A stretch of 64,000 nt of DNA, from positions 13,389 through 77,388 of the forward strand of contig JBJEJX010000074.1 of the NCBI GenBank assembly GCA_051878345.1. The letters run 5' to 3'. Each line of letters starts with the position of its first letter. Within the stretch, counting starts at the first letter, position 1. The notes below the pieces were generated by a model. That model had not been told where the DNA came from. It saw nothing but the letters and a program-made list of their open reading frames with translations, and made no database searches. Made by a program: the position numbers and the translations under genes. Shown here one piece after another: positions 8,065-36,903 of the stretch. The stretch comes from Paludibacteraceae bacterium (GTDB lineage: Bacteria; Bacteroidota; Bacteroidia; Bacteroidales; Paludibacteraceae).

Positions 8065-8125
8065 GGTAATTGTAATTTATAAGTGAAAAGTTTTTAGTTT
8101 CAATTCAAGTTTGTCAAGTCTGATG

Positions 8126-8908
8126 TTACTTGCAATCGGCGACTTGAAACTTCTCTACCATATTCGTTAAATCCGCAAACTCCGCCACGCTCAGTTGCTC
8201 CGGTCGTTTGGTGAAGACGGGGTCTTCCAGTATGGGATTACCTTTCCCCACCAGCGCTTGCAACGAGTTGCGCATTTGTTTTCGCCGTTGGTTGAATGCG
8301 GTCTTCACTATCTGCTTGAACAGCATTTCGTTGCAGTCGAGTTGCCGCCTGTGGTTGCGCGTCATGCGGATAACGGCGGACTTCACTTTCGGCGGAGGGT
8401 TGAACACGTGTTCGTCCACCGTAAACAGATACTCTATATCATAGTACGCTTGCAGCAGCACCGACAGTATGCCGTAGGCTTTGTTGCCCGGCTTCGATGC
8501 CAACCGCTCCGCCACCTCTTTCTGTATCATGCCGGAGCAGACGGGGATACGGTCTTTGTTCTCCAATATCTTGAAGAATATCTGACTCGAGATGTTGTAC
8601 GGATAGTTGCCTATCACGCTGAACTCTCCTTCGGGGAACACCGTCTCCAAGTCCAATTTCAGAAAATCGCCCTCTATAAGGTGCAGTTCGGGGTACCACT
8701 CTCTGAGATAAACCACGCTCTCGCGGTCTATCTCTATGGCAGTCAAATCAATATCGGGATTTTTGAGTAAGAACTGCGTGAGCACTCCCATACCCGGTCC
8801 TATCTCCAGAACTCTTCCGGAGGATACGGTCTCAGCAATTCGTTGGGCGACACTCAGGTCCTTCAAGAAGTGCTGACCCAAAAACTTCTTGGCGCGTACT
8901 TGTTGCAT
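8126..8908 (-). CDS. rsmA: 16S rRNA (adenine1518/1519-N6)-dimethyltransferase
   Basis: 260 aa with KKFLGQHFL and the SAM motif EIGPGMGVLT. Confidence 0.9.
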   Translation of the reverse strand: MQQVRAKKFLGQHFLKDLSVAQRIAETVSSGRVLEIGPGMGVLTQFLLKNPDIDLTAIEIDRESVVYLREWYPELHLIEGDFLKLDLETVFPEGEFSVIGNYPYNISSQIFFKILENKDRIPVCSGMIQKEVAERLASKPGNKAYGILSVLLQAYYDIEYLFTVDEHVFNPPPKVKSAVIRMTRNHRRQLDCNEMLFKQIVKTAFNQRRKQMRNSLQALVGKGNPILEDPVFTKRPEQLSVAEFADLTNMVEKFQVADCK

Positions 8909-9041
8909 TCTCTTGGTGATAATCGTCCATAACTCTTAACGCTTAACTTTTTTCGCTCTACGCTTGCATATATCCGAAAATTATAGTAATTTTGCAAGCG
9001 GTTTCATTTCAGGCTGCAAAATTACCACTTTTTTTTCAGAA

Positions 9042-9530
9042 ATGCAAGCATTAGCGCGATTTATTACAAAAATTATTGATTTTTTCTATCTTCCTTTCCG
9101 CAAGTTTATCCCGGAACAGTTGTTTCGTTATGCCGTTTGCGGCGGGGGAAACATGGTGTTGGACTGGGTGCTGTATTTCCTTGTTTACAACTACGGAGTG
9201 GGACACGACTTGCAGTATTTCACGGTTTGCGGCTATGAAATGTGCATGACGCCGCATATCCTCACGCTTTGCATTGTCTTCCCTGTCACTTTGCTCACGG
9301 GCTTTTGGCTCAATAAGTATGTTACCTTCACCCAGTCTTCATTGCGCGGTTGGAGTCAGTTCGGACGCTATATCCTCATTGTCGCGATAAACCTGTTGGT
9401 GAACTATTTCGGCTTGAAACTCTGTGTGGAACTCTTGGGTTGGTATCCCACGCCGAGCAAGATGTTTATCACTTGTATCACGGTGGTTATCAGTTTTGTA
9501 GGACAAAAATACTATTCGTTTCGGAAATGA
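9042..9530 (+). CDS. GtrA family membrane protein
   Basis: Start moved to ATG 9042 (MQALARFITK). FRYAVCGGGNMVLDW is typical of GtrA, and about four TM helices are present. Confidence 0.75.
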   Translation: MQALARFITKIIDFFYLPFRKFIPEQLFRYAVCGGGNMVLDWVLYFLVYNYGVGHDLQYFTVCGYEMCMTPHILTLCIVFPVTLLTGFWLNKYVTFTQSSLRGWSQFGRYILIVAINLLVNYFGLKLCVELLGWYPTPSKMFITCITVVISFVGQKYYSFRK

Positions 9531-11330: not shown

Positions 11331-11425
11331 AAGCCCCAACGGGGCGACATAAAACAGCGTAGGGTGAAACCCTACGAAAACGACACCCCCTCAAAAGCAA
11401 GCCCTATAAGGGCGACATAACTCAA
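11331..11425 (+). repeat. Triple-hairpin element, copy A
   Basis: aagccccaacggggc, cgtagggtgaaaccctacg and agccctataagggc hairpins with GACATAA linkers. Matches the reverse complement of 23186-23283. Confidence 0.75.
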
Positions 11426-11472: not shown

Positions 11473-13593
11473 ATGAAACGATTATCCATTCTTTTGCTGT
11501 TGGCGCTATGCACCGCAGCCACCGCTTTCGCCTACGACTTCCAATCCGGCGACCTCTACTACAACATCACGAGCGACACCACCGTGGAAGTGAGTACCGC
11601 CAACTACCAAGGTCTAACCTCCGCCACCATCCCCGCAACCATTACCTACAACGGCACTACCTACTCCGTAACAAGCATTGGAGACAAGGCGTTCCTCGAT
11701 TGCTCCTCCCTCACCTCCGTCACCATCCCCAACTCTGTAACAAGCATTGGGAACTATGCTTTCAAAAATTGCTCAGAGCTAACAGAGTTTACTATTCCTG
11801 AAAATGTCAAGTATATTGGGAATCGAGTCTTTGAAGGATGTTCGGGTATTACTTCCATTATATGGAACGCAAGGAATTGCCAAGATAGGTGGAAAAATGT
11901 TTATTATTATTCAGACCTTTTGTTTTATGGAATATATCCGCAAATTACTTCATTTACTTTTGGCGAGACGGTTGACTCTATTCCAAGTTATCTATGTTAT
12001 GGAATGTCGAGTCTCTCTAACATCACTATACCAGAAAACATCAAGTATATAAGCGGAAGTGTATTCGAATACTGCACAGGACTGACTGTGGTAGAGTGGA
12101 ATGCCGTCCATTGCTCCAATGATGTAGGAGATGGTAGCGGAAGAATATGGCTTATTTTCAAGAATGCCAATGCTCATATCACCTCTTTCACCATAGGGGA
12201 GAAAGTAGAGGTCATACCGGGTACGCTTTGCGATGGTCTATCCGAACTAACTTCCATCTCTATCCCCAATGGTGTAAAAACAATTGGAAGTCATGCTTTC
12301 CGCGATTGCACAGGCTTGACCTCCATCAGCATTCCGAAAAATGTATCTTCTATATATGGAGCAGCCTTCCAAGGTTGTACAAACATCACCTCTATCGCTA
12401 TTCCGAAAAATGTGCGATTGATATCCCCTTATACTTTTGCAGATTGTGTGAACCTGTCTTCCATCGAAATGCCCAACGATATAGATACAATCGGGCGTTA
12501 TGCTTTTTCGGGTTGTAGGAGTTTAACTGATTTTAGCCTGCCAACAGCCACAACAACGATAGGCACAGGTTGCTTCTATAACTGCTCGAGTCTTACCTCA
12601 TTGCTACTTCCCGAGAGTGTAACCACGGTGAATGACTCGGCTTTCTATGGTTGCTCTGGTTTAACCAAATTAGTCTGCCAATCACATGTTGAGAACGCCG
12701 GCAAACAAACGATTATCGGATGTATTTCTTTGGATACGATATCCATCTTTGCACAAGCCTTTGATGTAACGGAAAGTAACTGGCCATACATGCCCAAAAA
12801 CATCCGCTATATCAAAGTAACAGGCGGGGAACTGACAGACAACGCTTTCAATGTGATACTGCGTAACTATAAAGTTTTGAGTACCTTAGACCTTGCTGCT
12901 GTTACCAATACCACTATCTCAGACGAGGCTTTCAAAGGCTGCTACAACTTGCAGACCTTGCCACTGCCTGCTGAACTGACCGCTATTCCTTACATGGCAG
13001 TAGCCGAATGTGTTAACCTGCAATCCGTCACTATCCCCGCCACCGTTACCGATATAGCGCAGCGTGCCTTCGAGAACTGTCGCAGCCTGTCCGCCGTAAC
13101 CTTTGAGGACGGTATCGCGTTGGAGCGCATTGGCGGCTGGGCATTCTACAACTGCCACGACTTGCAGTCTATCGCTATCCCCGAAGGCGTTACGGAGATA
13201 GGCAATGCCGCTTTCTACGGCTGCAACTATCTGCAAGACCTTGCTCTGCCGAGCACATTGCGCAAGATAGGCGACAACACTTTCGCCCTCTGCTCCAAAC
13301 TGCAGAAGATGCATGTGGGGGCTATGGTGCCGCCTGCGGTGGAAAGCAAGACTTTCCTTGATGTGTTGCGGACTATTCCCGTGATAGTGCCCGACGAGGC
13401 GGTGGAGGACTACAAAGCCGCAACTGTTTGGCAGGAGTTCAACATTGTAGGCGAATCCAATGCCCCGATGAGCATTGAGAACACCCGCAGCCACGGCACA
13501 CAAGGCGTGCAGAAACTCCTCCGCAACGGAAGGGTGCTTATCCTCCGCAACGGCGTAACCTACGACATGATGGGTCAGACGCAGGAAAAATAA
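11473..13593 (+). CDS. BspA-type leucine-rich repeat surface protein
   Basis: 706 aa with a signal peptide (MKRLSILLLLALCTAATAFA) and many IP..V..IG..AF..C..LTS repeats. Its C-terminal tail LLRNGRVLILRNGVTYDMMGQ is shared with 53187..56444. Confidence 0.85.
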   Translation: MKRLSILLLLALCTAATAFAYDFQSGDLYYNITSDTTVEVSTANYQGLTSATIPATITYNGTTYSVTSIGDKAFLDCSSLTSVTIPNSVTSIGNYAFKNCSELTEFTIPENVKYIGNRVFEGCSGITSIIWNARNCQDRWKNVYYYSDLLFYGIYPQITSFTFGETVDSIPSYLCYGMSSLSNITIPENIKYISGSVFEYCTGLTVVEWNAVHCSNDVGDGSGRIWLIFKNANAHITSFTIGEKVEVIPGTLCDGLSELTSISIPNGVKTIGSHAFRDCTGLTSISIPKNVSSIYGAAFQGCTNITSIAIPKNVRLISPYTFADCVNLSSIEMPNDIDTIGRYAFSGCRSLTDFSLPTATTTIGTGCFYNCSSLTSLLLPESVTTVNDSAFYGCSGLTKLVCQSHVENAGKQTIIGCISLDTISIFAQAFDVTESNWPYMPKNIRYIKVTGGELTDNAFNVILRNYKVLSTLDLAAVTNTTISDEAFKGCYNLQTLPLPAELTAIPYMAVAECVNLQSVTIPATVTDIAQRAFENCRSLSAVTFEDGIALERIGGWAFYNCHDLQSIAIPEGVTEIGNAAFYGCNYLQDLALPSTLRKIGDNTFALCSKLQKMHVGAMVPPAVESKTFLDVLRTIPVIVPDEAVEDYKAATVWQEFNIVGESNAPMSIENTRSHGTQGVQKLLRNGRVLILRNGVTYDMMGQTQEK

Positions 13594-13936: not shown

Positions 13937-14003
13937 CCTAATCACTAACCACTAATCACTAACCACTAATCACTAACCACTGCCCACTAACCACTACTCA
14001 CTC
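13937..14003. repeat. CACTAAY heptamer array (short copy)
   Basis: Direct reading. Overlaps the stop region of the convergent gene 13994..15574. Confidence 0.85.
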
Positions 14004-15574
14004 CCCCCAATCCCCCTCTGCCGTGCGAGGGTGAGCAGATACTCTTTTGCGGCGTCATACTCATTGGGAATCACGCCGTCGAGGATGGCGTCTTTGATAG
14101 CCGTCTTTAGTTCCCCCACGGTGGAGCAGGGCGGCAGGTTCAGCAGTTGCATGATTTCCTCTCCCCGCACGGGCGGTTGGAAGTTGCGGATACGGTCGCG
14201 CTCCTCTAACTCCACCATTTTCTGCCGCACGAGTTGGTAGTTCCGATGAAACCGCGCCACTTTGTCGGCGTTCCGCGAAGTGATGTCGGCATTGCAGAGG
14301 AGCATTAGGTCTTCAATGTCGTCCCCCGCCTCGAAGAGCAGGCGGCGCACCGCTGAGTCGGTAACGGTGTCTTCGATGAGGTTGATAGGACGCATGTGGA
14401 GGTCCACCATCTTGATGACATAGTCCATCTTCTCGTTCTGCGGCAGTTTCATCTGCCGGAAGATACGCGGAATCATGCGGGCGCCGAGGTAGTTATGGTT
14501 GCGGAATGTCCACCCCGCCTGCGGGTCGTAGGCTTTGGATCGCGGCTTGCCGATGTCGTGCAGCAGCGCAGCCCACCGCAGCCACAGTTTGTCGGAACTC
14601 TCGGCGAGGTTGTCCAGCACTTGCAGCGTGTGATAGAACACGTCTTTGTGCCCCTTGCCGTTCTTCACCTCCACGCCTTTCAATGCTGCCAGTTCCGGGA
14701 AGACAAGCGGCAGCAGCCCCGTCTTATCCAGCAGCAGCCAGCCCGCGGAGGGCTTGCGCGAGAGCATTATCTTGTTCAGTTCATCGGCGATACGCTCGCG
14801 GGTGATGATACGAATCCGCTCGCGGTTGCGGGCGATGGCGTCGAAGGTGTCGGGATGCAGCGTGAAGCCCAGTTGCGTGGCGAAGCGTATCGCCCTCATC
14901 ATGCGCAGAGGGTCGTCGGAGAAGGTGATGTCGGGGTCGAGCGGCGTGCGGATAATCATGTCCTGCATGTCCTGTATGCCGTTGAAGGGGTCGAGCAGGG
15001 TGCCGTAGCGCCCGCCGTTGATACAGATGGCGAGGGCGTTGATGGTGAAGTCGCGGCGGTTCTGGTCTTCTTCGAGGGTGCCGTCTTCCACGATGGGGTT
15101 GCGCGAGTCGTGGCGGTAACTCTCCCTGCGCGCACCCACAAACTCCAACTCTGTCTCGCCGCGTTTCACCTGCGCCGTGCCGTAGGTGCGGAAGACCGAG
15201 AGGTGCGCCCCCTTGCCGAGACGCTTGGCAACGGCCTGCGCCAGTTCGATACCGATGGAGGGCTTGGACCCTCCAAACTCGGGACCCTCCCCATCCCTCC
15301 CTACGAGGGAGGGGGAAAGATTGCCATTTATAGACGAAGGTAATCTATTCTCTCCCTCCCTTTGTAGGGAGGGGCGGGGTGGGTCGCTTACCCTCCCCCT
15401 TTGCAGGGGGAGTTGGAGGGGGTCCTTGGTCTTCACCACCACGATGTCAATATCGGTGGAAGGGCGGTGCAGTATCAAGTCGCGCACCCAGCCGCCTATC
15501 ACGTAGCAGTCCAACTGCAAACGGTCTGCCTCCTCGCCTACCAGATGAAGAATGGGGTTATCTAACGATTGCAT
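13994..15574 (-). CDS. tRNA nucleotidyltransferase / poly(A) polymerase family protein with HD domain (CCA-adding type)
   Basis: Start moved to ATG 15574 (MQSLDNPILHLVGEEA). Motifs seen are GGWVRD, DIDIVV, RRDFTINAL and the HD-region HDIGKP. Carries a ~50-aa in-frame repeat insertion. Confidence 0.8.
   Translation of the reverse strand: MQSLDNPILHLVGEEADRLQLDCYVIGGWVRDLILHRPSTDIDIVVVKTKDPLQLPLQRGRVSDPPRPSLQREGENRLPSSINGNLSPSLVGRDGEGPEFGGSKPSIGIELAQAVAKRLGKGAHLSVFRTYGTAQVKRGETELEFVGARRESYRHDSRNPIVEDGTLEEDQNRRDFTINALAICINGGRYGTLLDPFNGIQDMQDMIIRTPLDPDITFSDDPLRMMRAIRFATQLGFTLHPDTFDAIARNRERIRIITRERIADELNKIMLSRKPSAGWLLLDKTGLLPLVFPELAALKGVEVKNGKGHKDVFYHTLQVLDNLAESSDKLWLRWAALLHDIGKPRSKAYDPQAGWTFRNHNYLGARMIPRIFRQMKLPQNEKMDYVIKMVDLHMRPINLIEDTVTDSAVRRLLFEAGDDIEDLMLLCNADITSRNADKVARFHRNYQLVRQKMVELEERDRIRNFQPPVRGEEIMQLLNLPPCSTVGELKTAIKDAILDGVIPNEYDAAKEYLLTLARQRGIGGSE
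15266..15425. repeat. Composite GGGAGGG-palindrome element inside a coding region
   Basis: ccctccctacgagggaggg, tccctccctttgtagggagggg and ccctccccctttgcaggggg hairpins with an AT-rich spacer. Same architecture as the intergenic copies at 48129-48240 and 52524-52631. Confidence 0.85.
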
Positions 15575-16559: not shown

Positions 16560-16955
16560 GCCCCTTGATTGTCTGTCCTTTGTCCCTCACCCTTTGTCCC
16601 TCGCCCTTTGTCCTTCGCCCTTTATCCTTTGTCCCTCCCCCGCCTCCCTCCTGCCTCGTCCCCTGCCTCCCGCCTATCCCTTGCCTACCTCTCGCCCGTC
16701 CCTCGCCAATCTTCCGCCTGTCTCTCGTCTGCCTCGTCCCTGCTACCTTCCCCCGCCCTTTTTCGGTCAAATCCCACCTTATCCTTTCCGCTACCTTTCC
16801 GCTACCCTTGCGCTACCTTCGCGCTACCTTTAGGCAACCTTCTGCCCGCCCGTAGAGTCACCGCACATTACGGCTCTACCGACCTGCGACCGACCCGCGA
16901 CAGACCCGCGACAGACCCGCGATAGACCCGCGATAGACCCGCGACAAAAAATCGG
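16560..16955. repeat. Composite simple-repeat block (CCTTTGTCC units, CGCTACCYTT 10-mers, GACCCGCGAYA 11-mers)
   Basis: Direct reading. The right half matches 36772-36903 and, inverted, 56869-57237. Confidence 0.85.
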
Positions 16956-19539: not shown

Positions 19540-21270
19540 TTATCTTTTGTTGAGCGTTGTTATGTTCATTGTTTGTGCACAGGATATGTGTGCGGAACGT
19601 AGAAATGACGAACAATAATCGGTGGGTATGAAATGAAGAACGGCAACTGACGAATACAAAGTGCGAGAAGTAGCGCAGTTGGTAGCGCACCACGTTCGGG
19701 ACGTGGGGGTCGGGCGTTCGAGTCGCCTCTTCTCGACATACGGCGATTCCGAGAAATCGGAGTCGCTTTTTTCATTACTATCACCACTGTATTTCGCTGA
19801 TAATCTTGAAGATACACGAAATACCTCATTTACTACAGGTGTTCGATAATTCATATTTTTTTTATTATAGAACACTCCTTCTGGGAATATCAGCTCTTGC
19901 AATTTCTGTCGACCATGAAAATCTAACTCTTTCCAGCAATCTTCTAATCTACAAGCCATTAGCTCTGCAAACTCAGCCATCTTCTTGGTGTTCGATAGTG
20001 ATTCCTCCACTTCCTCCAGTTGTAATTGAATTTTGTTCTTCTCATCCGTCAATTTTTTTATTGCGATATTATATGTGTTTTGGTTAATATCGCCGATGGC
20101 AAACCTATATTCTACATTTTCTATTTGCGTTTCTATTTCTGTTAGATTCCTTTTGACTAAAGCACTATTTTGGGCTTTGGCACTATAATACTGTGTCATC
20201 TCATTATTGATAATCTCATTAACAATTGGAAATAATTCAATCTTGATTTGATACTGTGCTAATAATGTTTCATAATTTTCATGTAATTCCTTGGCGGATA
20301 TGTTTGCACAGCACCCCTTGGTATTACATTTGTAGTAATAATACGTTTTGTTTTGTCTGGAACGTGTATAACCAGTTAATGCCCCTCCGCAATCTTCACA
20401 AAATACATGCCTCTTCAGGGGGAAGGGTATTGTTTCTTTAGCCTGCGTATAGCCTATATGAGCTGCTGAATTTACTTGCTCAAAAGTAAGTTTATCAATA
20501 ATAGCCTCATGATTTCCTTGGATAATAGCCCCATCGCCCAACCTGGGATGAACTATCAATCCACAATAGAAAGGATTTTTTAAGATTTTGTTCAAATGTT
20601 TTGCTGTAACAGTTAATCCTATTGAATGTAATTTATTAACAATTTCCACTTCCCTTATTCCTTGCGCGCGCCAAATCCATGCTTTTTTTAAGATTTCGCC
20701 TTCTGGAGTAATACTAATCGTTGTAACTCCACCTATTTTTTTTCTTTCATAACCTAATGGAAGTTGAAACGGCCAGTTCCCTCTTTCTAATTGTGCTTGC
20801 TGTCCTTGCCTAATCTTATCGGTTCGCATAGCATTATCAAAATTCCCGAGTAGTAAAGAAAGATTCTCAACAAAGTCCCCAACTGAAGAATCTGGATCCG
20901 AGGCTTGAGTTGCCGAAATTACATATATTCCGTTTGCTTTCAATTTAGTTTTTGTTACAATTGCTTCGTTTGCACGGCTAAACCTATCAAAGGAATATAC
21001 AAGTATTATATTTACTTCTTTGTCTTTCAACGCCAATTGAATCATCTCTTTGTATAATTCACCTTCCGTCTTACCGCTTTCGTGCTGTCCCCCACAATAA
21101 TACTTAATATAAATACCATTATCAGCGGCATATTGTTCACAACGCTCCTTTTGAGTATTAAGAGAGCAATTCTCCTTTTCTTGTCTCTCACTAGATACTC
21201 GTGTCCAAACTATAGCCACTTTTCTAACTAATTTGCTGTATTGTATAGTTTCTCTTCTAACTTTGCTCAT
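19540..21270 (-). CDS. Large serine recombinase (native C-terminus probably near 19775; ORF runs on through host DNA)
   Basis: Resolvase catalytic N-terminus (VAIVWTRVSSERQ, SFDRFSR), recombinase domain, Cys-rich zinc ribbon (CEDCGG...YYKCNTKGC) and coiled coil. The last ~75 codons are antisense to the tRNA-Pro terminator, the tRNA and its leader. Confidence 0.85.
   Translation of the reverse strand: MSKVRRETIQYSKLVRKVAIVWTRVSSERQEKENCSLNTQKERCEQYAADNGIYIKYYCGGQHESGKTEGELYKEMIQLALKDKEVNIILVYSFDRFSRANEAIVTKTKLKANGIYVISATQASDPDSSVGDFVENLSLLLGNFDNAMRTDKIRQGQQAQLERGNWPFQLPLGYERKKIGGVTTISITPEGEILKKAWIWRAQGIREVEIVNKLHSIGLTVTAKHLNKILKNPFYCGLIVHPRLGDGAIIQGNHEAIIDKLTFEQVNSAAHIGYTQAKETIPFPLKRHVFCEDCGGALTGYTRSRQNKTYYYYKCNTKGCCANISAKELHENYETLLAQYQIKIELFPIVNEIINNEMTQYYSAKAQNSALVKRNLTEIETQIENVEYRFAIGDINQNTYNIAIKKLTDEKNKIQLQLEEVEESLSNTKKMAEFAELMACRLEDCWKELDFHGRQKLQELIFPEGVFYNKKNMNYRTPVVNEVFRVSSRLSAKYSGDSNEKSDSDFSESPYVEKRRLERPTPTSRTWCATNCATSRTLYSSVAVLHFIPTDYCSSFLRSAHISCAQTMNITTLNKR
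19664..19736 (+). tRNA. tRNA-Pro (anticodon CGG)
   Basis: Hand-folded cloverleaf. Acceptor CGAGAAG/CTTCTCG, D arm GCGC-AGTTGGTA-GCGC, anticodon arm CCACG-TTCGGGA-CGTGG, T arm GGGCG-TTCGAGT-CGCCT, discriminator A. Total 73 nt. Confidence 0.85.
19743..19772 (+). terminator. Intrinsic terminator after tRNA-Pro
   Basis: gcgattccga-gaaa-tcggagtcgc followed by tttttt. Confidence 0.7.
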
Positions 21271-21629
21271 GTTTACCTATCTTTTTTTGCCATAGATCAC
21301 AGACAATTATAGCATACAGATACAAAGAACTTAATACCCTTTGTTGCTCATCAGAATCTGTGATACCTGCTTTTAATAATAGATTGTTATACTTCTTATT
21401 ATCCAACATACAACACGACCATTATTTTCGTGCTGTGGGTTAGAAAACTGGTAGCAATGTTCATATAATATATCCTCATAGTAATACTGTTATTTGTGAG
21501 CAAATATAGGACTTTTATTTGAAATAAGAAATAGCTATGAATAATTTTTTTGAACAATAATGAAAATAAATAGGATATTTGTAATTGTTATCCGTTTTTT
21601 TTAGAACAGCAAAACAAATTTCTGCCTAA

Positions 21630-22280
21630 TCAGATTCTTTCAAAGATTTTTTTGACACGTTGAACTGTAGAAATTCCTTTACCAGTAATTTTTGCAACAT
21701 CACGTATTGACATACCTTTTTTAAGATAGCCAATAATATCCTCATGCTTCCGTATCACTTCCTCTCTACTCATTGTTGAACCCTTTCGCCTCCCGACAAC
21801 TTTCTCACCCTGATGTTGAGCTCTAAAATTATCATATCCGCTTTTTAATCTAAATTGAATACTCTCCCGCTCTATTTGTGCGCATGTAGATAGAGTAGCC
21901 AGCATGATGGGAGCAAAGACACTTGGCTTACCCTCGTCATCAAGCAATAAAAAATGTTCTTTTTGTAGGTATAGATTAATTTTATAATCCACAAACGCTT
22001 TCACAGTTTGGAGGACGTCAAAAGCGGAATGTCCTATTCTGCTTAATTCTGAACAAAGACAAATGTCTATGTTATTTTCTATGGCATACTCCATCGCTGT
22101 TCTCAGCACAACTCGATCTTGATTTTGTTTCCCGCCAGAAATATACTCTTCAAAAACACTCCTCACTTCATAGCCCATACTCATGGCATAGTGTTGCAAA
22201 TCCAACACCTGTCTATCTGTAGATTGTCGATTTCTCTCAATAGAGGACGAAACTCTTGCATAAATAATAGCCGTTTTCAT
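21630..22280 (-). CDS. Small serine recombinase (resolvase/invertase family) with C-terminal HTH
   Basis: 216 aa with the MKTAIIYARVSSS catalytic-Ser motif and the C-terminal HTH MSIRDVAKITGKGISTVQRV. Confidence 0.85.
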   Translation of the reverse strand: MKTAIIYARVSSSIERNRQSTDRQVLDLQHYAMSMGYEVRSVFEEYISGGKQNQDRVVLRTAMEYAIENNIDICLCSELSRIGHSAFDVLQTVKAFVDYKINLYLQKEHFLLLDDEGKPSVFAPIMLATLSTCAQIERESIQFRLKSGYDNFRAQHQGEKVVGRRKGSTMSREEVIRKHEDIIGYLKKGMSIRDVAKITGKGISTVQRVKKIFERI

Positions 22281-23185: not shown

Positions 23186-23283
23186 TTGAGTTATGTCGCC
23201 CCGTTGGGGCTTACTTTAGGGGGGGGACTTCCCCACGTAGGGACGAGTCCCTACGCTGTTTTATGTCGCCCCTTCGGGGCTTT
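23186..23283 (-). repeat. Triple-hairpin element, copy B
   Basis: gccccgttggggc, cgtagggacgagtccctacg and gccccttcggggc hairpins. The reverse complement aligns with 11331-11425. Confidence 0.75.
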
Positions 23284-23880
23284 CGTTCTCTTCCATATCC
23301 TCTCGCGCAAAAGACAAAGTATTTTCCGTAGGGTCGGAGGGTGGCAGGTGATATGTAGTTTCTTGGATGCCGTTGTGGACTCACCTATCACGTTCAGCGT
23401 GAAAGTCTTATTGCGCCAAATACGAACGGATAGGCTTGTTTCACCATGCAGTTGGCTTTTCGAGATGCCATGGATGGCACATTCGCCGTTTTTTGTTTTC
23501 CACGAAAGACGGATGATATCTCCCCACTCCACTTCCGTTTTATCTGCCTCAAATGAGTAGATATACGCATCGTTGTTACCCAAGCGATAGGTATATTTTC
23601 GGTATCCGGCGGATGAACAGAAATAGAGCACAATATCTTCCTGACCGCCCCCGATAGGTATCTCCTTTTGCTTATTGGTTGTGAGATAAAATGTTCTTTC
23701 TCCACATACCGCAAATGCTGAGCGTATATTGGTACCATTCCAACGGAGAATAGCATTCGTTTTCGGCGCACCGTTCAGGTTTTCCCATGCTATGGACACG
23801 ACAGGCCATGTTGCACCACAAACCTCACATATCGCAGATGCATCATTGTTTGTTGATTCACAATGTTTACATGTCCACAT
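23251..23880 (-). CDS. Zinc-ribbon protein with beta-rich C-terminal repeats
   Basis: 209 aa with C4-x2-C7-x10-C18-x2-C21 at the N-terminus. Starts 11 nt downstream of the kinase gene. Its 3' end overlaps repeat copy B. Confidence 0.6.
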   Translation of the reverse strand: MWTCKHCESTNNDASAICEVCGATWPVVSIAWENLNGAPKTNAILRWNGTNIRSAFAVCGERTFYLTTNKQKEIPIGGGQEDIVLYFCSSAGYRKYTYRLGNNDAYIYSFEADKTEVEWGDIIRLSWKTKNGECAIHGISKSQLHGETSLSVRIWRNKTFTLNVIGESTTASKKLHITCHPPTLRKILCLLRERIWKRTKAPKGRHKTA

Positions 23881-23891
23881 TGCTTTCGCAT

Positions 23892-25124
23892 TTATTTGAT
23901 GAGAGTTCCTTTTAATTTCGGTTTTACAGATGCTTCAGCGGCAGAAGCCGAAGATGATTTTACCTTTAGTGAATGCTTATCCGGCTCTACGTGTTCTGGC
24001 TTATCCAGCGGCTTATCTATTTCTGACTCTTTCGATGAAGTAAGTACTGCATCAGAAGCATCTTTACGCAACTTTAAGACCAGCGACTTTGGCAATTTCA
24101 AGCGTGGAAACACAACCGGCAGTGATTTGTTTCCTTTGGGCTTGCGTTCTTCTTCTGTCATGGTAGCATAGTCAGGACGAGGGCATCGAGCGTCTTGCTT
24201 AGCGGGAACAGGCACTCTGGAGATGTCTATCTTCTTCAGTTCATTAAACACTTGCAGAATATTCGGTCGATGATTCGGATCCTTCTCAAGCATAGATACC
24301 AAAAGAGATTTTACGCCTCTTGTTATATTCTCGCTATAAGGGATTCCGACCGATTCTCCGGCATTGGTTGCCGCATAGGTATATATGTACTTGGATTTGT
24401 CGAATAAGGGTCTCTCGCCGCTGAGATATTCGCAGAAGATGATGCCGAGTGAATAAATATCCGCTTTTGTGGTTAACACACTGCCGGGGAGCTGTTCCTC
24501 TTCATCGGATATATAGTCAAATACTTCGGGTGCGTAATACTCAGGAGTGCCGACAACAGCCTGTCGGTCGGCAGGAGGAGCGGCTTCGAAATAGGAGTCA
24601 TCGAAATCAATCAGTTTGGTGGTATAAATACCTGATGCTGTTTTCTTGATGAGTATATTCTCCGGTTTCAAATCTCCGTGTACAATGTGGTTATTGTGAA
24701 GAATACGGAGGCTGGAAGCAAGGCTCCTCAAGATGATAATAATTTCTTTGAAAGACAGTTTCGCCACTTCTTTCGGGTTCATGGTAGTGGTGTCCACCCA
24801 CTCACTAATCTTGTAGTAGGAAGTATCATGGAGCATCAGTTCTTTCGCGCAGACAAGGTTGCTTCCCTCGGAGCATGCCGCATTGGTAATCCTCATTATG
24901 TTGCGTTGATGCGCTTCGAACTCAACGCACATATTCCGCTTATATGCTTTTGTTTTCTCACTTCCCGGGCTATCCGCAGTCGGATATTTGGGAGAGAGAA
25001 ACTCTTTTATGAACCAACGTTTCCCGTCTTTGGTTGCCGAAGTTATTCTGCTCCGTCCTCCGGCGACCCGAAAATCTGCTTCGAGCAAGTAGCGTCCAAG
25101 ATATTTTCCTTTTCCAAGTGTCAT
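23892..25124 (-). CDS. Ser/Thr protein kinase (Hanks type) with low-complexity C-terminal tail
   Basis: 410 aa with WFIKEF (Lys), HGDLKPENIL, IDFDDS and GTPEYYAPE. Confidence 0.85.
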   Translation of the reverse strand: MTLGKGKYLGRYLLEADFRVAGGRSRITSATKDGKRWFIKEFLSPKYPTADSPGSEKTKAYKRNMCVEFEAHQRNIMRITNAACSEGSNLVCAKELMLHDTSYYKISEWVDTTTMNPKEVAKLSFKEIIIILRSLASSLRILHNNHIVHGDLKPENILIKKTASGIYTTKLIDFDDSYFEAAPPADRQAVVGTPEYYAPEVFDYISDEEEQLPGSVLTTKADIYSLGIIFCEYLSGERPLFDKSKYIYTYAATNAGESVGIPYSENITRGVKSLLVSMLEKDPNHRPNILQVFNELKKIDISRVPVPAKQDARCPRPDYATMTEEERKPKGNKSLPVVFPRLKLPKSLVLKLRKDASDAVLTSSKESEIDKPLDKPEHVEPDKHSLKVKSSSASAAEASVKPKLKGTLIK

Positions 25125-25156
25125 ACCAAGTAGGAATTTATAGTTTTATCGGTTTG

Positions 25157-26185
25157 TCAGTTCTCTGAGCCAAGCAGCAGTTCTGCCCCTTCCTTATAGG
25201 CATTCCATATCGTATCCATTGCTTTGGGGAGTTCGTTCATCTGCGATTGATAGAGCTCGTATGGTCGGATAAACGCTTTCATTAGACATTGATGCCGTTT
25301 TACGAGTGCTTTTTTCCAATCCTCGAACGATAATCCAATCATGGTGATGGCGAAGGAGTAGTCATCGCCTGATATATCCAACAGCATGTTATCCATATGG
25401 TTTACCCAATCGTGTACATTGTCGGACATATACAACGTGTCGAGCAGCAGTTTTTCGAAATGCATCGGTGTCATCACATACCCGAAACATCCGTCTCTGC
25501 ATGATATGAGAATCACCGGCGCATCGGACAAGAATTGTAACTTGCTGATATAAAACGAGTCGCTTTGAGAAATAGCATTGCTCAAAGGCGGGTCGTTATG
25601 CAAATTGAATAAGGCATCTCCTCCCCCTCTGACATGGTCTTGCGAGGCTTGCAACAGCCCTTCTTCGCGTAAAATATAGTTACGCGAATCACCAGCCCAG
25701 TAACTATAGATATCTATGCCGCCTTTGCTCGTAGCCCACGACATCATCGCCATGGTGGTGGGCAAGATTTTGGACATCGTGGATCGGAGTTTTGACGGAA
25801 CGATATGTAGGTCTTCTTTGATATTCTCCATCGCAGCCTTAATGGTATTCTCTAAGGAGGTTGTATCAAAGTTCATGCCGTTACCACTATTCTCTTCCGC
25901 GAACGCCAACGTAGTTTCCCTAACGAGACGGGAGGCAATATATGCGTCTGTATGTATTTCTCCTGCTGGCAATGTTCTTATGGCACTTCCGGCGCCCCCC
26001 ATTCCGTCAAACGTAGCCAAAACGCCACAGGAGAAATCCGAAGAGAGCCATAGGATCGGATCGGCATCTTCTCCGGCATTTTCTTTTCGGGCATGATTTT
26101 TCGAGTCCGAGAGCACCTTGGTTACATCCGACATTGATAGTCCCGACCTGTCGGGACGACAAACAGAATAAGCAGATAGTATCAT
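25157..26185 (-). CDS. PP2C-family protein phosphatase-like protein
   Basis: 342 aa with FDGMGGAGSA, YWAGDSRNYILRE, QDH and SCRDGCFGY. The start may instead be the internal Met at 26134. Confidence 0.7.
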   Translation of the reverse strand: MILSAYSVCRPDRSGLSMSDVTKVLSDSKNHARKENAGEDADPILWLSSDFSCGVLATFDGMGGAGSAIRTLPAGEIHTDAYIASRLVRETTLAFAEENSGNGMNFDTTSLENTIKAAMENIKEDLHIVPSKLRSTMSKILPTTMAMMSWATSKGGIDIYSYWAGDSRNYILREEGLLQASQDHVRGGGDALFNLHNDPPLSNAISQSDSFYISKLQFLSDAPVILISCRDGCFGYVMTPMHFEKLLLDTLYMSDNVHDWVNHMDNMLLDISGDDYSFAITMIGLSFEDWKKALVKRHQCLMKAFIRPYELYQSQMNELPKAMDTIWNAYKEGAELLLGSEN

Positions 26186-26200
26186 GTCTCAGCATCCCCA

Positions 26201-26926
26201 TTAAATAGAGTTCATAATTGCATCCAAGATTTGGGTGTAGTCCGTATCGGACAATCCATCTCCTGCTTTAGCGGGCCAGTGGGTTACCTCGTTCCATGTG
26301 GAGGAAATAGTTGACCAAACTTCACATTCGGGTGCAAACAGACACAGTCGCTTGGAACTTTTCGGCATAAGTGCGCCTTGAGGCGCATCCCACATATCGG
26401 TGAGCTCGTCCATATCTTTCGGCATTTCGGACGGGTATTTTGCTCCGGCGAACTCACGTCCTTCCTCAAACGTTAGTGGAGTCACATCGGTGAAGAGCAC
26501 AATAATGTGTCGCCGTTTGTTTCCTCCCATGTCCCAATCGGAACGCATGGCTTCAGTCAATGCTTCCAATCCGTTTTCACGCCAACCTTGCGAAGAAGAC
26601 ATTGAGCCTCCCTTAGCATCCAGATGGTCCACATACGCTTTGAGCTGCCCTTCTTCGTTTTCCATTTGTTCTTCATTGCTCAGAACAAAGAACTCAGATT
26701 TTTTTAACGCATCTTGATTATCGTATTCAAAATTTTTGAAACTGATAACTCGAATACGCAGTTGGCTCACCGATTTCCCTTTCTCGTTAGCCACACGAAC
26801 TAAGTCGGGATAGAAACGGAGGATGTTTTCCTTAACCGTACTAAGGAGCGAACCCATAGAACCTGTGGTGTCCACCACAAAAACAATGTCAACGTGGTAC
26901 TTAAGACCAAAATTATTTTCTGCCAT
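26201..26926 (-). CDS. von Willebrand factor A domain protein (TerY-like)
   Basis: 241 aa. MIDAS-like VDIVFVVDTTGSMGS with a later LFTD strand. Confidence 0.75.
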   Translation of the reverse strand: MAENNFGLKYHVDIVFVVDTTGSMGSLLSTVKENILRFYPDLVRVANEKGKSVSQLRIRVISFKNFEYDNQDALKKSEFFVLSNEEQMENEEGQLKAYVDHLDAKGGSMSSSQGWRENGLEALTEAMRSDWDMGGNKRRHIIVLFTDVTPLTFEEGREFAGAKYPSEMPKDMDELTDMWDAPQGALMPKSSKRLCLFAPECEVWSTISSTWNEVTHWPAKAGDGLSDTDYTQILDAIMNSI

Positions 26927-26945
26927 ATTAGTAAAAATTTAAGTA

Positions 26946-27167
26946 TTATAAATCTATCCATTCATCCTCTGCTGACTCAGCAGAGTGTGTTTTCGGCTGA
27001 TGCTTTGCCGCAGCAGGTGGTATCTCATCCGTTGTTTCAATGGGTGTTTCGGCTGCTGCTCTGCCGGCAAAATAGGCATTGTATTCCCGAACGAAACTAT
27101 CGGGAAACATCTCGCGGTCTATCTCTTCATCAGTTACGTACCTAAGGTCCTTATAGTCTTCTTCCAT
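26946..27167 (-). CDS. Small acidic hypothetical protein
   Basis: 73-aa ORF packed between operon genes, overlapping the upstream ORF by 17 nt. No recognisable motif. Confidence 0.45.
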   Translation of the reverse strand: MEEDYKDLRYVTDEEIDREMFPDSFVREYNAYFAGRAAAETPIETTDEIPPAAAKHQPKTHSAESAEDEWIDL

Positions 27168-27903
27168 AACACTTCAGCAAGCAAATGTTAATACGTTCCT
27201 GCCACGAGCACTCAAATGAGAATCCACGCTTCTCAAGGCGGTAGGCAATTTCTTTACTTATAGTATCTAACTCCGGCAGACTCCATGCGCCTGATTCGGT
27301 GTTTTTATTCCGAAAGTGTTCCGAATATACATCCCACATCAACAAACGCAGACATCCAAACTCTTCCAACATCTCTTTCTGACGATCATAGTCATATTCG
27401 CGGAGATTGGTAAAGCAATATGCATACATGGCATCGAAACTTACCGCAGCATCCAGCATCACATCTCTTCTCTTTGTTCGAATCCGCTTGTTGACCTTTA
27501 TCTTGGTGAGATAGCGAGCCATTAACTCATTAAGTTCTAAGTCATGCGCTTGAATCATCTGACCCCAATAGCAATCCGGCAGTTGCTCAAATACCGCTTT
27601 CTTATAGGCGGACTTATCCGGATAGAACTCAGCAAAATATGCAAGCTGCTGTTTCTCCAATAGCAACATCGACTGCACCTGCTCCCTATCGAATAGGGTA
27701 ATTTCCGACATCACACGCAAACCTGATTTATTCTCTGCATAGTATTCGAAATGGATGGGTAACTTATTCCACCATAGGTCTGCTATCTCTGCCCAAACGG
27801 CTCTCATCAGCGCCTCATCTTCGGGGTGCTTTGGTAACCACTCTTGGGTTACCCAGTTATCTTCGAATGTACCTAAAATTGATATATCCATATCTTGTTT
27901 CAT
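27151..27903 (-). CDS. Hypothetical protein (first gene of the vWA-PP2C-kinase operon)
   Basis: 250-aa ORF that appears helical. No motif recognised. Confidence 0.6.
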   Translation of the reverse strand: MKQDMDISILGTFEDNWVTQEWLPKHPEDEALMRAVWAEIADLWWNKLPIHFEYYAENKSGLRVMSEITLFDREQVQSMLLLEKQQLAYFAEFYPDKSAYKKAVFEQLPDCYWGQMIQAHDLELNELMARYLTKIKVNKRIRTKRRDVMLDAAVSFDAMYAYCFTNLREYDYDRQKEMLEEFGCLRLLMWDVYSEHFRNKNTESGAWSLPELDTISKEIAYRLEKRGFSFECSWQERINICLLKCYGRRL

Positions 27904-28297: not shown

Positions 28298-28508
28298 AAA
28301 GCAAATAATAGTTTATTAAAAATACACATAAAGGGAGTTCCATCTTCTGCCGACACATCGTAACTGCGACCAACTCTGTGTCATTAGAAAAAAGAACTTC
28401 CCTGTTATTCTTTTCGCTTAATAACTCCTTTTGCTCATCGACGTCGCAGGTCTCACAAAAGAAAGCACCCGCTTTCGTTCAGAAATCGTTCCTGTTCGAA
28501 AGCGAGTG

Positions 28509-28600: not shown

Positions 28601-29758
28601 TTATTTATACAAGATAGCGAAAAGTCTATCAAATTCTTTCTTGGAGATTTTTCCGGACTCCCACGCTTCGGAGATGCTTGGGTAGTCGGGTTGGGCTTGG
28701 AGCATTTTAGGATAATACCTACCATAGAATGCCATAAAATCTGTTTCAATGGTTTGTGTTTCCGCGGGATATAGTTCTTGGAAATGAAGATGCGATTGAT
28801 TCAAACTATCGCAATACGCAGAGGATATCCTGCCGACAAATTCACTATACGGATAGGGTGGGTTTTGAACGCACGTACAATACTTTTCGTATAAACGCAC
28901 ATACTCCTTGTGGGCATCTGCAGCATTAAATCCCTGCTGTTCGGTTGCAGTTTGAGGAGCAGGAATAGTCCAACAGAATATCCATACCAAGATTGCACCC
29001 AACAACAAGAGACAACTTATTATTGCTCGCCAAGCAGTAAGTGTTATTGCTTTGCGCAGTGCTGCAACCGTCTCGTATCTACGGTGTGGATTGGTTTGCC
29101 GGCATTTCCTTACTACCCGTCGGTATCTATGCGGAAATAGCAGTTGTATGATTTCCCCCAAAGCATAGATGTCGGCAGTAGGTGTTAGGCGGACGCTTTC
29201 CCCTGATTTCTGCTCTGGTGCGGCATATTGGGAAGTGTAGCCGATATTGGTGGCAACATACTCATCCTTATCTGCCATACCCAAGTCGATCAACCGAACA
29301 TGTCCATCGGTGGTAACAAGGATGTTTTGGGGCTTAATATCTGCGTGGATAATCTGTTTAGAGTGGAGATAATCTATCGCATCCAGCAGTTCATTCAGTA
29401 CCTTTTTGCGTTCAGTTATCGACCGATGGGGTAACCATTTGTCGATAGGTTGTCCATCCACATATTCCATGACAATAACCCAGCCTAAGTCCGAATAATG
29501 TTCCATCCGCCACACTCGCAAGATATGCGGGTTCTCGAGTTGCTGAAGTAGGTGATACTCTCGTTGTAGTTGGCTGAGCAACACTCCTTGATACGGATGA
29601 GAGGGCTGGATGGCTTTGAGAATTAGGCGTTGTCCGTTTTGGTGGGCGCAATAGATACGATGATGTTCCGTCTCGAACATCAGGGTGCATTGATTGACAG
29701 GGGCTGACTCCACTGAAGAAAAGTCCCTTGAGAATCCGGATGTAGTTTCTTCGCTCAT
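28601..29758 (-). CDS. Membrane-anchored Ser/Thr protein kinase with C-terminal extracytoplasmic domain
   Basis: 385 aa with LILKAI (Lys), HADIKPQNIL, IDLGMAD and YAAPE, one TM helix (IISCLLLLGAILVWIFCW) and then about 120 aa. Confidence 0.8.
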   Translation of the reverse strand: MSEETTSGFSRDFSSVESAPVNQCTLMFETEHHRIYCAHQNGQRLILKAIQPSHPYQGVLLSQLQREYHLLQQLENPHILRVWRMEHYSDLGWVIVMEYVDGQPIDKWLPHRSITERKKVLNELLDAIDYLHSKQIIHADIKPQNILVTTDGHVRLIDLGMADKDEYVATNIGYTSQYAAPEQKSGESVRLTPTADIYALGEIIQLLFPHRYRRVVRKCRQTNPHRRYETVAALRKAITLTAWRAIISCLLLLGAILVWIFCWTIPAPQTATEQQGFNAADAHKEYVRLYEKYCTCVQNPPYPYSEFVGRISSAYCDSLNQSHLHFQELYPAETQTIETDFMAFYGRYYPKMLQAQPDYPSISEAWESGKISKKEFDRLFAILYK

Positions 29759-30381
29759 TTGATTTTCACTTCACTAAGACCGTTACCCCGTCCTATCACA
29801 TACTCTCCCAAGTTTTGACCATGACGGGTTAGGTTGGTTAAAATAGCAGGTACCCCCACAATCATTTGTGAGCAATCAAACTCGTCTTCTGCCAATAGCA
29901 TGGTAGAGTGCGTTACCTGCTCAATACAAAAATGTTGATTGCCATCATATCTGACCTGCATTATTCTATTGGGTTGCCATACAATAAGCACTATCTGACC
30001 CACTGGTAGCGTTCTCATATCCACTCCGGCACAAGTGGCGACCCACCCCGAGTCTGCTTTTTCGTTGTTTGTTTGGTCAACAAAAATATCCCAATCAGGA
30101 TACCCTACATAACGACACAGAATATCCAACGACGAACGGTATATCGTTTGGGAATTGGTATGCCGCACTCCCCAAATACGGCGGATGGTATCAGCATTGA
30201 GTGCATTCTTGAGTTCTTCTTCGGCAAATAACTGTATCCGAAGTGTGGAATTCATATGCCCGTACTTCTTTTCAACAGCCATCCGCAGACGCGCAATAGC
30301 AGGGTGGGTATCTGGAATTTTTGATGGCATAACGGTTAGTTTTTGTATGGGGATATTCAAATTTCCAAGTCTCGACGGCAA
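29755..30381 (-). CDS. Hypothetical protein, possible N-terminal HTH, translationally coupled to the kinase
   Basis: 208-aa ORF whose stop overlaps the kinase start (ATGA). The segment TIRRIWGVRHTNSQTIYRSSLDILCRYVGYPDW resembles an XRE-like HTH, but weakly. The start codon is uncertain. Confidence 0.5.
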   Translation of the reverse strand: MPSRLGNLNIPIQKLTVMPSKIPDTHPAIARLRMAVEKKYGHMNSTLRIQLFAEEELKNALNADTIRRIWGVRHTNSQTIYRSSLDILCRYVGYPDWDIFVDQTNNEKADSGWVATCAGVDMRTLPVGQIVLIVWQPNRIMQVRYDGNQHFCIEQVTHSTMLLAEDEFDCSQMIVGVPAILTNLTRHGQNLGEYVIGRGNGLSEVKIK

Positions 30382-30440
30382 AATTACAACTATTTTTCGA
30401 TATAGCCAAAATTCATGTGTTTATTTGCGAATTTTTTCTT

Positions 30441-31196
30441 TTAATACTCTATAAGGGTGCACGCTTCAGGGATCTTGCCGACTAACGCTAATGCCTTCGG
30501 TGCTCTGATGGTACATTGGCAACCTTCGAAAGCCCTATCTCCAATGCTTATTACACCATTGGGGATGGTAATGGAGGTAAGAGAAGAGCAATCTTCGAAA
30601 GCCCTATCTCCAATGCTTGTTACGCTATTGGGAATAGTGATGGAGGTAAGAGCGGAGCAACCTTCGAAAGCCCTATCTCCAATGCTTGTTACACCATTGG
30701 GGATGGTAATGGAGGTAAGAGAAGAGCAATCTTCGAAAGCCCTATCTCCAATGTTTGTTACGCTATTGGGAATAATGATGGAAATAAGGGCGGAGCAACC
30801 AGAGAAAGCATAGTCGCCTATTTTGACAACACCATTCGGAATTATAAAGGCATCCCCGTGGTTAAGATGCTTACAACCACAAAAAGCATCATCGGGGATA
30901 ACTCTTAATGACGAAGGACTCTTAAACTCAATGCAAATTTCATTGCAACTATTTGCATCTATTCCCTCAAACTCTTCTAACGAACTTGGGAACTTAAAAG
31001 TCGTCCAATCAGGTATTTCGCAAAAATCAGATTTACGTATTGATTTGACCCCTTCCGGAATAATATAATCACTCTCAAACTGCCCATCAAAACTATCTGA
31101 CGTTACATGAGTTATTGGGCGCAAAGCCATCTTAAAATAGTCGCACTCATTAGGTGTCCATAGATACTTACCACTCTCTATTGTATCTATATCCAT
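30441..31196 (-). CDS. BspA-type LRR protein without signal peptide; frame stays open upstream to about 31486 with no ATG
   Basis: 251 aa from the first ATG, with near-identical 23-aa repeats (IPN.VTSIGDRAFE.CS.LTSIT). My translation shows the frame continuing ...IGYDKNAPINFRHIRVIKIYEDADDFEYKF... upstream. Confidence 0.7.
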   Translation of the reverse strand: MDIDTIESGKYLWTPNECDYFKMALRPITHVTSDSFDGQFESDYIIPEGVKSIRKSDFCEIPDWTTFKFPSSLEEFEGIDANSCNEICIEFKSPSSLRVIPDDAFCGCKHLNHGDAFIIPNGVVKIGDYAFSGCSALISIIIPNSVTNIGDRAFEDCSSLTSITIPNGVTSIGDRAFEGCSALTSITIPNSVTSIGDRAFEDCSSLTSITIPNGVISIGDRAFEGCQCTIRAPKALALVGKIPEACTLIEY

Positions 31197-36771: not shown

Positions 36772-36903
36772 TTTCCTTTCCGCTACCCTTGCGCTACCTT
36801 TCCGCTACCCTCGCGCTACCCTTAGGCTGTCTTCCACCGACCCGCGACAGACCCGCGACAGACCCGCGACAGACCCGCGAAAGACCCGCGAAAATCCGCG
36901 GGC
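36772..36903. repeat. CGCTACCYTT 10-mers plus GACCCGCGAYA 11-mers (copy 2 of composite repeat)
   Basis: Direct reading. Matches 16783-16955. Confidence 0.85.

Follow-up and report, generated by a model that had tools for sequence, protein, structure and literature searches.

What is encoded by a row of six closely packed minus-strand genes in a contig of a Paludibacteraceae bacterium (Bacteroidota), and which of the six belong together? The row lies at 23251-27903 of the 64,000-nucleotide (nt) stretch that we analysed and call the window (assembly GCA_051878345.1, contig JBJEJX010000074.1, positions 13,389 to 77,388 of the forward strand). A preliminary description made from the letters alone had seen in it a triad of von Willebrand factor A (vWA) protein, PP2C-like phosphatase, and Ser/Thr kinase. 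It had assigned this triad to the TerY-P system and had proposed that the three other genes, which it could place in no family, might make the locus a larger, undescribed variant. Our analysis draws the limits differently. We give a little better than an even chance to the view that the row contains, on a mobile island, one copy of a widespread phospho-signalling cassette of four genes (vWA, PP2C, kinase, and a zinc-finger protein), which would act as a mobile-borne phospho-switch in conflict or defence. The cassette is a variant of a theme already known from computational work and not a new class. The six open reading frames (ORFs) were recovered at exactly the coordinates first reported, with the reported spacings of -17 to +32 nt (in order, -17, +19, +15, +32, and +11 nt):

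27151-27903, minus strand: ORFan of 250 amino acids (aa), first gene of the packed row
26946-27167, minus strand: acidic protein of 73 aa (isoelectric point 4.2), overlapping the 250-aa ORF by 17 nt
26201-26926, minus strand: vWA protein of 241 aa, VWA_4 / integrin-beta-I-like
25157-26185, minus strand: PP2C-type (PPM) Ser/Thr phosphatase of 342 aa, from a divergent PP2C_2 branch
23892-25124, minus strand: Hanks-type Ser/Thr kinase of 410 aa, with the kinase domain at about aa 1-297 (24234-25124)
23892-24233, minus strand: disordered Lys/Ser/Pro-rich C-terminal tail of the kinase, with LKGTL near its end (aa 404-408, nt 23901-23915)
23251-23880, minus strand: zinc-finger protein of 209 aa, with a RanBP2-type finger at aa 2-21 (nt 23818-23877)

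These ORFs are real genes; homologues of four of them keep the same order in many genomes. We recovered 80 genome loci with a profile of the PP2C, added loci from look-ups of the exact proteins, and analysed the 84 non-redundant ones as six-frame ORFs with phmmer and jackhmmer (single loci are labelled L002, L009, and so on). The vWA, PP2C, and kinase genes occur together in 64 of the 84 loci; the triad is real and conserved. The kinase adjoins the PP2C in 75 loci, and a member of the vWA family does so in 66. The loci belong to Bacteroidota, Actinomycetota, Chloroflexota, and Bacillota, to which the Herpetosiphon plasmid CP000876 is added, and the 1,649 homologues found for the PP2C cover at least four phyla. 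Such a patchy spread across phyla is typical of mobile conflict systems. Two arrangements prevail. The order vWA-PP2C-kinase-zinc finger is found in Bacteroidota, Chloroflexota, Bacillota, some Actinomycetota, and the Herpetosiphon plasmid. The other is an actinomycete order, in which genes for proteins of ~750 aa and ~380 aa are followed by PP2C-kinase-vWA-x-zinc finger.

The gene that follows the kinase is, judging from its conservation, a true fourth component of the triad. Its product has cysteines arranged as C4-x2-C7-x10-C18-x2-C21, then a body in which two beta-rich (PKD/Ig-like) segments precede a basic C-terminal helix. The products of the post-kinase gene in L002 (39%, 1e-40), L010 (54%, 1e-35), and L004 (26%, 2e-8) are homologous to it. 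Among 25 members of the family, no columns are invariant except W2, C4, C7, N11, C18, and C21. We searched all locus ORFs for the pattern W-x-C-x(2,4)-C-x3-N-x6-C-x2-C, which we take to be that of the RanBP2-type finger (Pfam PF00641). It occurs in 48 of 8,901 ORFs; all 48 lie on the strand of the triad, and in 45 the finger is N-terminal. An ORF with an N-terminal RanBP2-type finger lies on the strand of the triad in at least 44 of the 64 triad loci, and on the other strand in none. With a looser criterion (an N-terminal CxxC..CxxC ORF on the same strand within 6 kb), such an ORF is present in 62 of the 84 loci. The Pfam profile Zn_ribbon_RanBP recognises the L054 member (35.1 bits for a cut-off of 27) and gives sub-threshold matches in L004 and L002; the window protein itself matches DZR alone (0.018).

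The finger is constant and the body is not. The latter is beta-rich and PKD-like in the subgroup of the window (the L004 protein has a PKD match at 5e-5), Sel1-like in L030, and helical in L023, L024, and L027; in actinomycetes, it consists of a proline-rich part, a transmembrane segment, and a C-terminal domain. We considered whether the 209-aa protein of the window had recently been cut down from a 400-aa form and rejected this, since relatives with 84-92% identity are equally long and conserve the tail.

The quoted motifs of the vWA, PP2C, kinase, and zinc-ribbon proteins are all in the translations, as is the low-complexity tail of the kinase. Profiles of hidden Markov models (HMMs) back the domain assignments at once for the kinase (Pkinase, 4e-31) and fail on the single vWA and PP2C sequences, for which PDB searches likewise stay empty or below threshold, but the families of the latter two are recognised. 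The vWA protein, with the motif VVDTTGS, stays below threshold in Pfam when scanned alone (VWA_2, 1e-3; VWA_4, 8e-3). In the alignment of its family, 31 of 32 sequences match PF25106 VWA_4 (best 3e-13), 19 match VWA_2, and 17 match Integrin_beta, and integrin beta I domains head the comparison of the profile with the PDB (4.5e-4). The residues D13, D19, T21, S23, E117, and D147 are invariant in the family, and these include a complete metal-ion-dependent adhesion site (MIDAS): D19-x-T21-x-S23, E117, and D147. The PP2C (FDGMGGAGSA, WAGDSRNY, SCRDGCFGY) has no Pfam match as a single sequence and a weak one to Stp1 (2e-5). Nearly half of its aligned relatives (15 of 31) match PF13672 PP2C_2, and its profile finds Stp1 (6ihl) and tPphA (2j82) in the PDB at 2e-4 to 1e-3. 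The residues G38-E39-D40, D60-G61-x-G63-G64, G165-D166-S167-R168, D231-G232, and D274-D275 are invariant; the metal-binding motifs are kept, and the phosphatase is predicted to be catalytically intact.

The kinase, which carries HGDLKPENIL, IDFDDS, and GTPEYYAPE, has every catalytic residue and is likewise predicted to be catalytically intact. It is of the non-RD Hanks type, because its catalytic loop reads HGD and not HRD. In the alignment of 31 family members K40, H149, D151, K153, N156, D173, D175, P199, and D222 are invariant, and E70, G150, E200, and R286 nearly so. The tail of the window kinase (about aa 300-410) ends in one instance of a short motif, [LVIM][RK][GI][KTSNR][GLM] (for example, LRGKGL, LKGTL, or VRINL), that we found in 31 of 40 tails of family kinases. 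Shuffled tails carry it 0.76 times on average and at most 4 times in 500 shuffles, an enrichment that is only indicative because the pattern was set after inspection of the data. The kinase does not fall among the single-gene defence kinases (PD-T4-6, Mad6 of MADS, MkoA of Mokosh): its PADLOC and NCBIfam matches reflect the generic kinase domain and lie far under the cut-offs (75 versus 460 bits for MAD6), and MADS or Mokosh partner genes are not present.

Whether the cassette extends upstream, to the 250-aa and 73-aa genes, is a separate matter. The two could be integral parts of one larger undescribed system of six genes, for instance as its missing effector and a partner, but we consider this unlikely. 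The tight packing of the ORFs speaks for it, and so does the order 250-aa/73-aa/vWA/PP2C/kinase, which recurs in L009 at 87-97% identity (86% for the 73-aa protein); L009 is the only locus that keeps this order. The slot upstream of the vWA gene can also carry effector-like cargo, as it holds a gene for a PLDc_2 nuclease-type protein in L004, and one may speculate that the acidic-aromatic C-terminus of the 73-aa protein (EDEWIDL) is a ligand of the MIDAS. Against this, the 250-aa protein is an ORFan. It has no Pfam or NCBIfam matches, and a single further copy (87% identical) among 5.8 billion clustered proteins; HMMER, run in full against 1.84 billion representatives, yields no homologue outside its own cluster. 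It is predicted to be all-helical; a PADLOC match to CARF/Csx1 (2e-3) is not credible, with neither a supporting motif nor homologues behind it.

The relatives that come next after L009 point the same way. In L010 and L011, where identity in the vWA is 84%, the place of both genes is taken by an unrelated 240-aa gene, and L002 also has an unrelated 240-aa gene in the slot of the 250-aa gene. The one homologue of the 73-aa protein besides that of L009 is in L010 (4939-5121, 70% over 37 aa), where it is not beside the vWA gene; it comes after a metallophosphatase gene, downstream of the zinc-finger gene by about 0.85 kb. Neither protein was found by jackhmmer in the other 80+ loci, and the genes upstream of the vWA have no family in common across loci. 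The 250-aa and 73-aa genes are lineage-specific orphans rather than conserved parts, the latter being loosely linked. From the six-gene unit first proposed, the zinc-ribbon gene survives as a linked member; the 250-aa ORFan and the displaced 73-aa gene do not.

Is the cassette then a TerY-P system? According to Bell et al. 2024 (PMC11090510), who summarise Anantharaman, Iyer & Aravind 2012, TerY-P unites a TerY-like vWA with a PP2C and with a kinase whose C-terminus bears a fused zinc ribbon, and such triads are described as predicted switches. A TerY-P-like module was shown by Gao et al. 2020 (as summarised in PMC7699616) to protect against T7-like phages; it has an OB fold in place of the zinc ribbon of the kinase. 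The window resembles these systems in packing the genes of a stand-alone vWA, of a PP2C_2-type phosphatase, and of a Ser/Thr kinase tightly into one operon, in the association of a zinc ribbon with the kinase, in its presence, like that of its relatives, on mobile or conflict islands, and in the link of some relatives to TerD. We know of no sensing or output mechanism for TerY-P.

The locus could be read as a canonical TerY-P, that is, a proposed metal-sensing phosphorylation switch with unrelated genes around it, a reading to which we attach a low probability. The same three domain types are tightly linked, and the comparison with the ter-linked triad of plasmid R478 gives some further grounds. 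The R478 phosphatase matches PP2C_2 (9.5e-46), the Pfam family also matched by relatives of the window PP2C; the R478 kinase likewise comes with a zinc ribbon plus a region rich in beta strands, at its C-terminus; and hhalign aligns the vWA family with an R478 TerY at an E-value of 3e-5. In addition, in three Bacteroidales loci (L023, at 7955-9153, L024, and L027, from metagenome-assembled genomes of Muribaculaceae and Bacteroides) the zinc-finger gene is directly followed by two genes, one for a protein with a TerD domain (3e-21) and one for a protein with CW_7 repeats; this is the only Ter-family link seen in the triad family. Yet similarity to the R478 triad is marginal. The hhalign probability is just 73% and falls to 6% for the R478 copy that bears TerY_C, and the BLAST E-value between the window vWA and R478 TerY is 0.01, a generic likeness. 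The subfamilies differ, since the R478 TerY proteins match Pfam VWA and VWA_2 plus TerY_C, and the window vWA is VWA_4/Integrin_beta-like and lacks TerY_C; a tblastn search with the latter found no IncHI2 TerY among 72,556 plasmids. The window PP2C has no BLAST similarity to that of R478, and the kinases share 28% identity over 130 aa. The zinc ribbon of the window is of the RanBP2 type and N-terminal on a separate protein, whereas the TerY-P ribbon is fused to the C-terminus of the kinase. Such a fusion (CxxC..CxxC after residue 280) is seen in 0 of the 75 kinases next to a PP2C, and the R478 ribbon lacks the RanBP2 pattern. Finally, no ter genes are found among the scanned island ORFs of the window, although ter linkage is not obligatory for TerY-P, and the zinc-finger gene is a conserved, not an unrelated, neighbour.

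We also tried PADLOC as a test of TerY-P membership and dropped it. The window vWA and PP2C are unmatched, but this negative result is uninformative because the TerY and PP2C of R478, used as positive control, are equally unmatched. Taking the sequence comparisons together, the window locus is not a canonical TerY-P, and TerY-P is its nearest named relative. The assignment to TerY-P was thus right about the architecture and overstated membership, given the differences from R478 in vWA subfamily, PP2C, and zinc ribbon.

The closest published description of the window cassette is the third theme of the GAP1-N2 GTPase-centred conflict systems of Kaur, Burroughs, Iyer & Aravind 2020 (eLife, PMC7159879, section 29), who restrict it to actinobacteria. 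They already note a zinc-ribbon plus beta-rich element beside kinase, PP2C, and vWA in these bacteria. The window shares with this theme an active kinase, an active PP2C, a stand-alone vWA, and a zinc ribbon with a beta-rich part, here on a separate polypeptide. The actinomycete loci that we found appear to be instances of this theme and belong to the same protein families as the window. In their upstream genes the one match is a weak one to an nSTAND3 P-loop (3.6e-4), which does not confirm GAP1-N2 or GTPase domains. The loci of the window and of other Bacteroidota, Chloroflexota, and Bacillota differ in lacking GAP1/GTPase genes and in the order vWA-PP2C-kinase-zinc finger; no GAP1-N2 or N-terminal-zinc-ribbon GTPase domain is found in the window ORFs between 19.5 and 36 kb. 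Beside this theme, the window cassette stands as a relative on its own, with no GTPase genes.

Two further systems are built on a similar logic. In the Esr threat-sensing pathway of oral Actinomycetes (10.64898/2026.09.08.750141), a vWA and a kinase/phosphatase signal to a variable-domain protein. The likeness lies in a phosphorylated target that has one constant domain and, besides it, output domains of many alternative kinds, of which some are zinc fingers. Esr, however, depends on an FHA-domain target, a MoxR ATPase, and a beta-propeller sensor at the surface, and all three are absent here; its constant domain is the FHA domain and not a RanBP2 zinc finger. The threonine-phosphorylation pathway of the Pseudomonas H1 type VI secretion system (PpkA, PppA, Fha1) sets a vWA-linked Hanks kinase against a PP2C as the on/off switch of a conflict apparatus. 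There, the vWA is periplasmic and forms one polypeptide with the kinase, phosphorylation is aimed at an FHA protein, and secretion system genes lie around; none of this applies to the window.

A working scheme for the four-gene cassette has precedents for its logic in TerY-P, the Esr pathway, and KKP. Kinase and phosphatase would form a push-pull switch that is kept off by the PP2C, and the sensor side, with ligand binding or scaffolding, may fall to the vWA with its MIDAS and to the zinc-finger protein. The trigger would most plausibly be an invader, either a phage or another genetic element, and would release phosphorylation of host or invader proteins, and growth arrest or a block of the invader could follow. 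In relatives, accessory genes may aid the output, such as those for DUF4407 membrane proteins, the TerD-domain protein, and the PLD nuclease. These accessories are not present in the window, where the output might be phosphorylation itself or come from the 250-aa and 73-aa genes.

How far can this scheme be trusted, and what competes with it? Several observations weigh against it. No classical effector domain is recognisable in the window, as the preliminary description had already remarked. The AlphaFold2 models give no help: that of the 250-aa protein (2 sequences) has a score of 49.6 in the pLDDT (predicted local distance difference test), which is too low, and that of the zinc-finger protein (3 sequences), with a pLDDT of 40, is unusable. 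The neighbourhood counts rest on crude six-frame ORFs and cover 84 loci, whereas the homologues number more than 1600, and no relative of the cassette is found among 2.9 million IMG/VR contigs, so that phage carriage is unsupported. The cassette might instead be a regulatory module of the element or the cell rather than an immune one, controlling excision or lysogeny like the KKP (kinase-kinase-phosphatase) module of Pf prophages or relaying stress like the vWA-kinase-FHA-PP2C operon DRA0331-0334 of Deinococcus. The position of the cassette beside recombinases on an island, the regulatory roles documented for kinase and PP2C modules (PMC11341870; 10.64898/2026.01.23.701218), and the lack of an effector domain in the window all agree with such a module. 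We nevertheless find it improbable: many loci of the family are chromosomal with no recombinase near, for example the actinomycete loci with the ~750-aa and ~380-aa genes, and variable zinc-finger bodies with swapped accessories (membrane protein, nuclease, TerD) better fit a diversifying conflict system.

There is also a bolder version of the conflict reading. The cassette would be a distinct, unnamed four-component system of immune type, in which the finger is a docking head that stays constant and may bind the LRGKGL-type motif of the kinase tail. The exchangeable body (PKD/Ig, Sel1, helical, or proline-rich with a transmembrane segment) would be the arm that diversifies, for sensing or for output. 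Upstream of the vWA, the slot would then hold rapidly swapped cargo, here the ORFan and the small acidic protein as lineage-specific effector or modulator. We regard this as tentative and, on balance, doubtful, though less so than the canonical TerY-P, six-gene, and regulatory explanations. The four-gene phospho-switch as a variant of the published theme remains the reading we prefer.

Kinase/phosphatase switches are among the least understood modules of bacterial defence and conflict, and this family offers a compact and separable one. Its stand-alone zinc ribbon with a constant head and a swappable body, and the conserved motif in the kinase tail, are concrete handles for experiments. Its signature (a VWA_4-type vWA, a divergent PP2C_2, an HGD kinase with an LRGKGL-type tail, and an N-terminal RanBP2 finger) is overlooked by annotation pipelines, since scans of single sequences with Pfam, NCBIfam, and PADLOC fail on the vWA and the PP2C. 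The window copy is one ordinary member of the family, with a putative defence role, accompanied by two orphan genes.

The surroundings of the cassette vary among its relatives. DUF4407 membrane proteins are encoded downstream of the zinc-finger gene in L004, L022, L034, L038, L095, and L097, and in L034 an ADP-ribosylglycohydrolase gene stands between the kinase and zinc-finger genes. Other neighbours, of mobile or defence type, include the toxin-antitoxin pairs PIN/FitA (L096) and MNT/HEPN (L097), UvrD and TOTE domains (L095), and CHAT proteases with a resolvase (L007). The only match in INPHARED is L094 (MT836186), an unverified, virome-derived entry named 'Bacteriophage sp.', where PP2C-kinase-vWA lies beside genes for a tyrosine-integrase-like protein, a MazF-like protein, and XRE-type regulators, with no obvious phage structural genes among the ORFs that we inspected. 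Rather than a phage, this record may be an integrative element. We rejected a phage-borne triad, given the absence from IMG/VR and the resemblance of this sole INPHARED match to an integrative element (integrase, MazF-like gene). Two metagenome contigs, L002 and L010, are nearest to the window after L009. Their downstream genes encode ThyX-like, NAPRTase, phosphoribosyltransferase, and epimerase proteins, with two metallophosphatase genes, a nucleotide-metabolism cluster that recalls large phages or ter-linked biosynthetic genes.

In the window, the zinc-finger gene is followed by a repeat of about 100 nt, then by a gene for a small membrane protein and two recombinase genes:

23186-23287, no strand: double-hairpin repeat element of ~100 nt, at and beyond the 3' end of the zinc-finger gene
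19540-21270, minus strand: large serine recombinase
21630-22280, minus strand: small serine recombinase/invertase

The recombinase-bearing island without ter genes that had been described from the letters is there, and its GC content is low. GC content is 33-48% over ~20-37 kb of the window and 33-39% in the recombinase stretch (19540-22280), compared with 52-60% in the flanks, and no Ter-family domain is found among the scanned ORFs of the island. The large recombinase has the Pfam domains Resolvase, Recombinase, and Zn_ribbon_recom, the small one Resolvase; they match the XisF-like and Mpi-like models of NCBIfam. The 3' end of the large recombinase ORF overlaps a tRNA-Pro(CGG) on the opposite strand (19664-19737), which suggests integration of the island at this tRNA gene. 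We looked for a direct repeat of the 3' end of the tRNA-Pro as the far boundary of the island and did not find one.

The ~100-nt element contains a direct repeat (23191-23217 and 23261-23287) and two GCCCC-loop-GGGGC hairpins, which are terminator-like on the plus strand, and it supplies the final ~10 codons of the zinc-finger gene (..KAPKGRHKTA). An inverted second copy of the whole element lies 11.8 kb away at 11331-11425, and Rfam matches the Acido-Lenti-1 family in both (23236-23281 and 11332-11376, with 45 and 43 bits). It is probably an end marker of the operon, either a terminator or an element of the repetitive extragenic palindromic (REP-like) kind. Between the two copies lie the Mpi-like invertase gene and also housekeeping genes.

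Just upstream of the operon, the minus strand encodes a second Hanks kinase (385 aa, within 28601-30410), in which the kinase domain is joined by a hydrophobic segment and by a further domain at the C-terminus. In PADLOC it best matches the single-gene defence kinase PD-T4-6 (5.7e-31). Its ORF overlaps by 4 nt a 208-aa ORF of no known family. The sole full match to a Bacteroidetes-type promoter near the operon (TTTG-N17-21-TAnnTTTG, 30379-30410) precedes this pair, and there is a terminator-like hairpin at 28461-28476. In the whole window, the promoter pattern occurs 16 times against 1.04 expected, mostly in the form AAAAAAAGCAGTACCTTTG and directly upstream of genes. One match (3632-3663) stands immediately before a match to the FopS small RNA family of Rfam, known from Bacteroidetes (3668-3741, 77 bits).

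Two intergenic regions that flank the low-GC region hold arrays of an 11-nt tandem repeat (ACAGACCCGCG, at 16867-16954 and 36836-36890), and more arrays of 11 to 14 nt are at 16574-16655, 36775-36829, and 13938-14007. The window also encodes two BspA-type leucine-rich-repeat proteins (11473-13593 and 30441-31196), the second of which contains 69-nt tandem DNA repeats (30519-30863).

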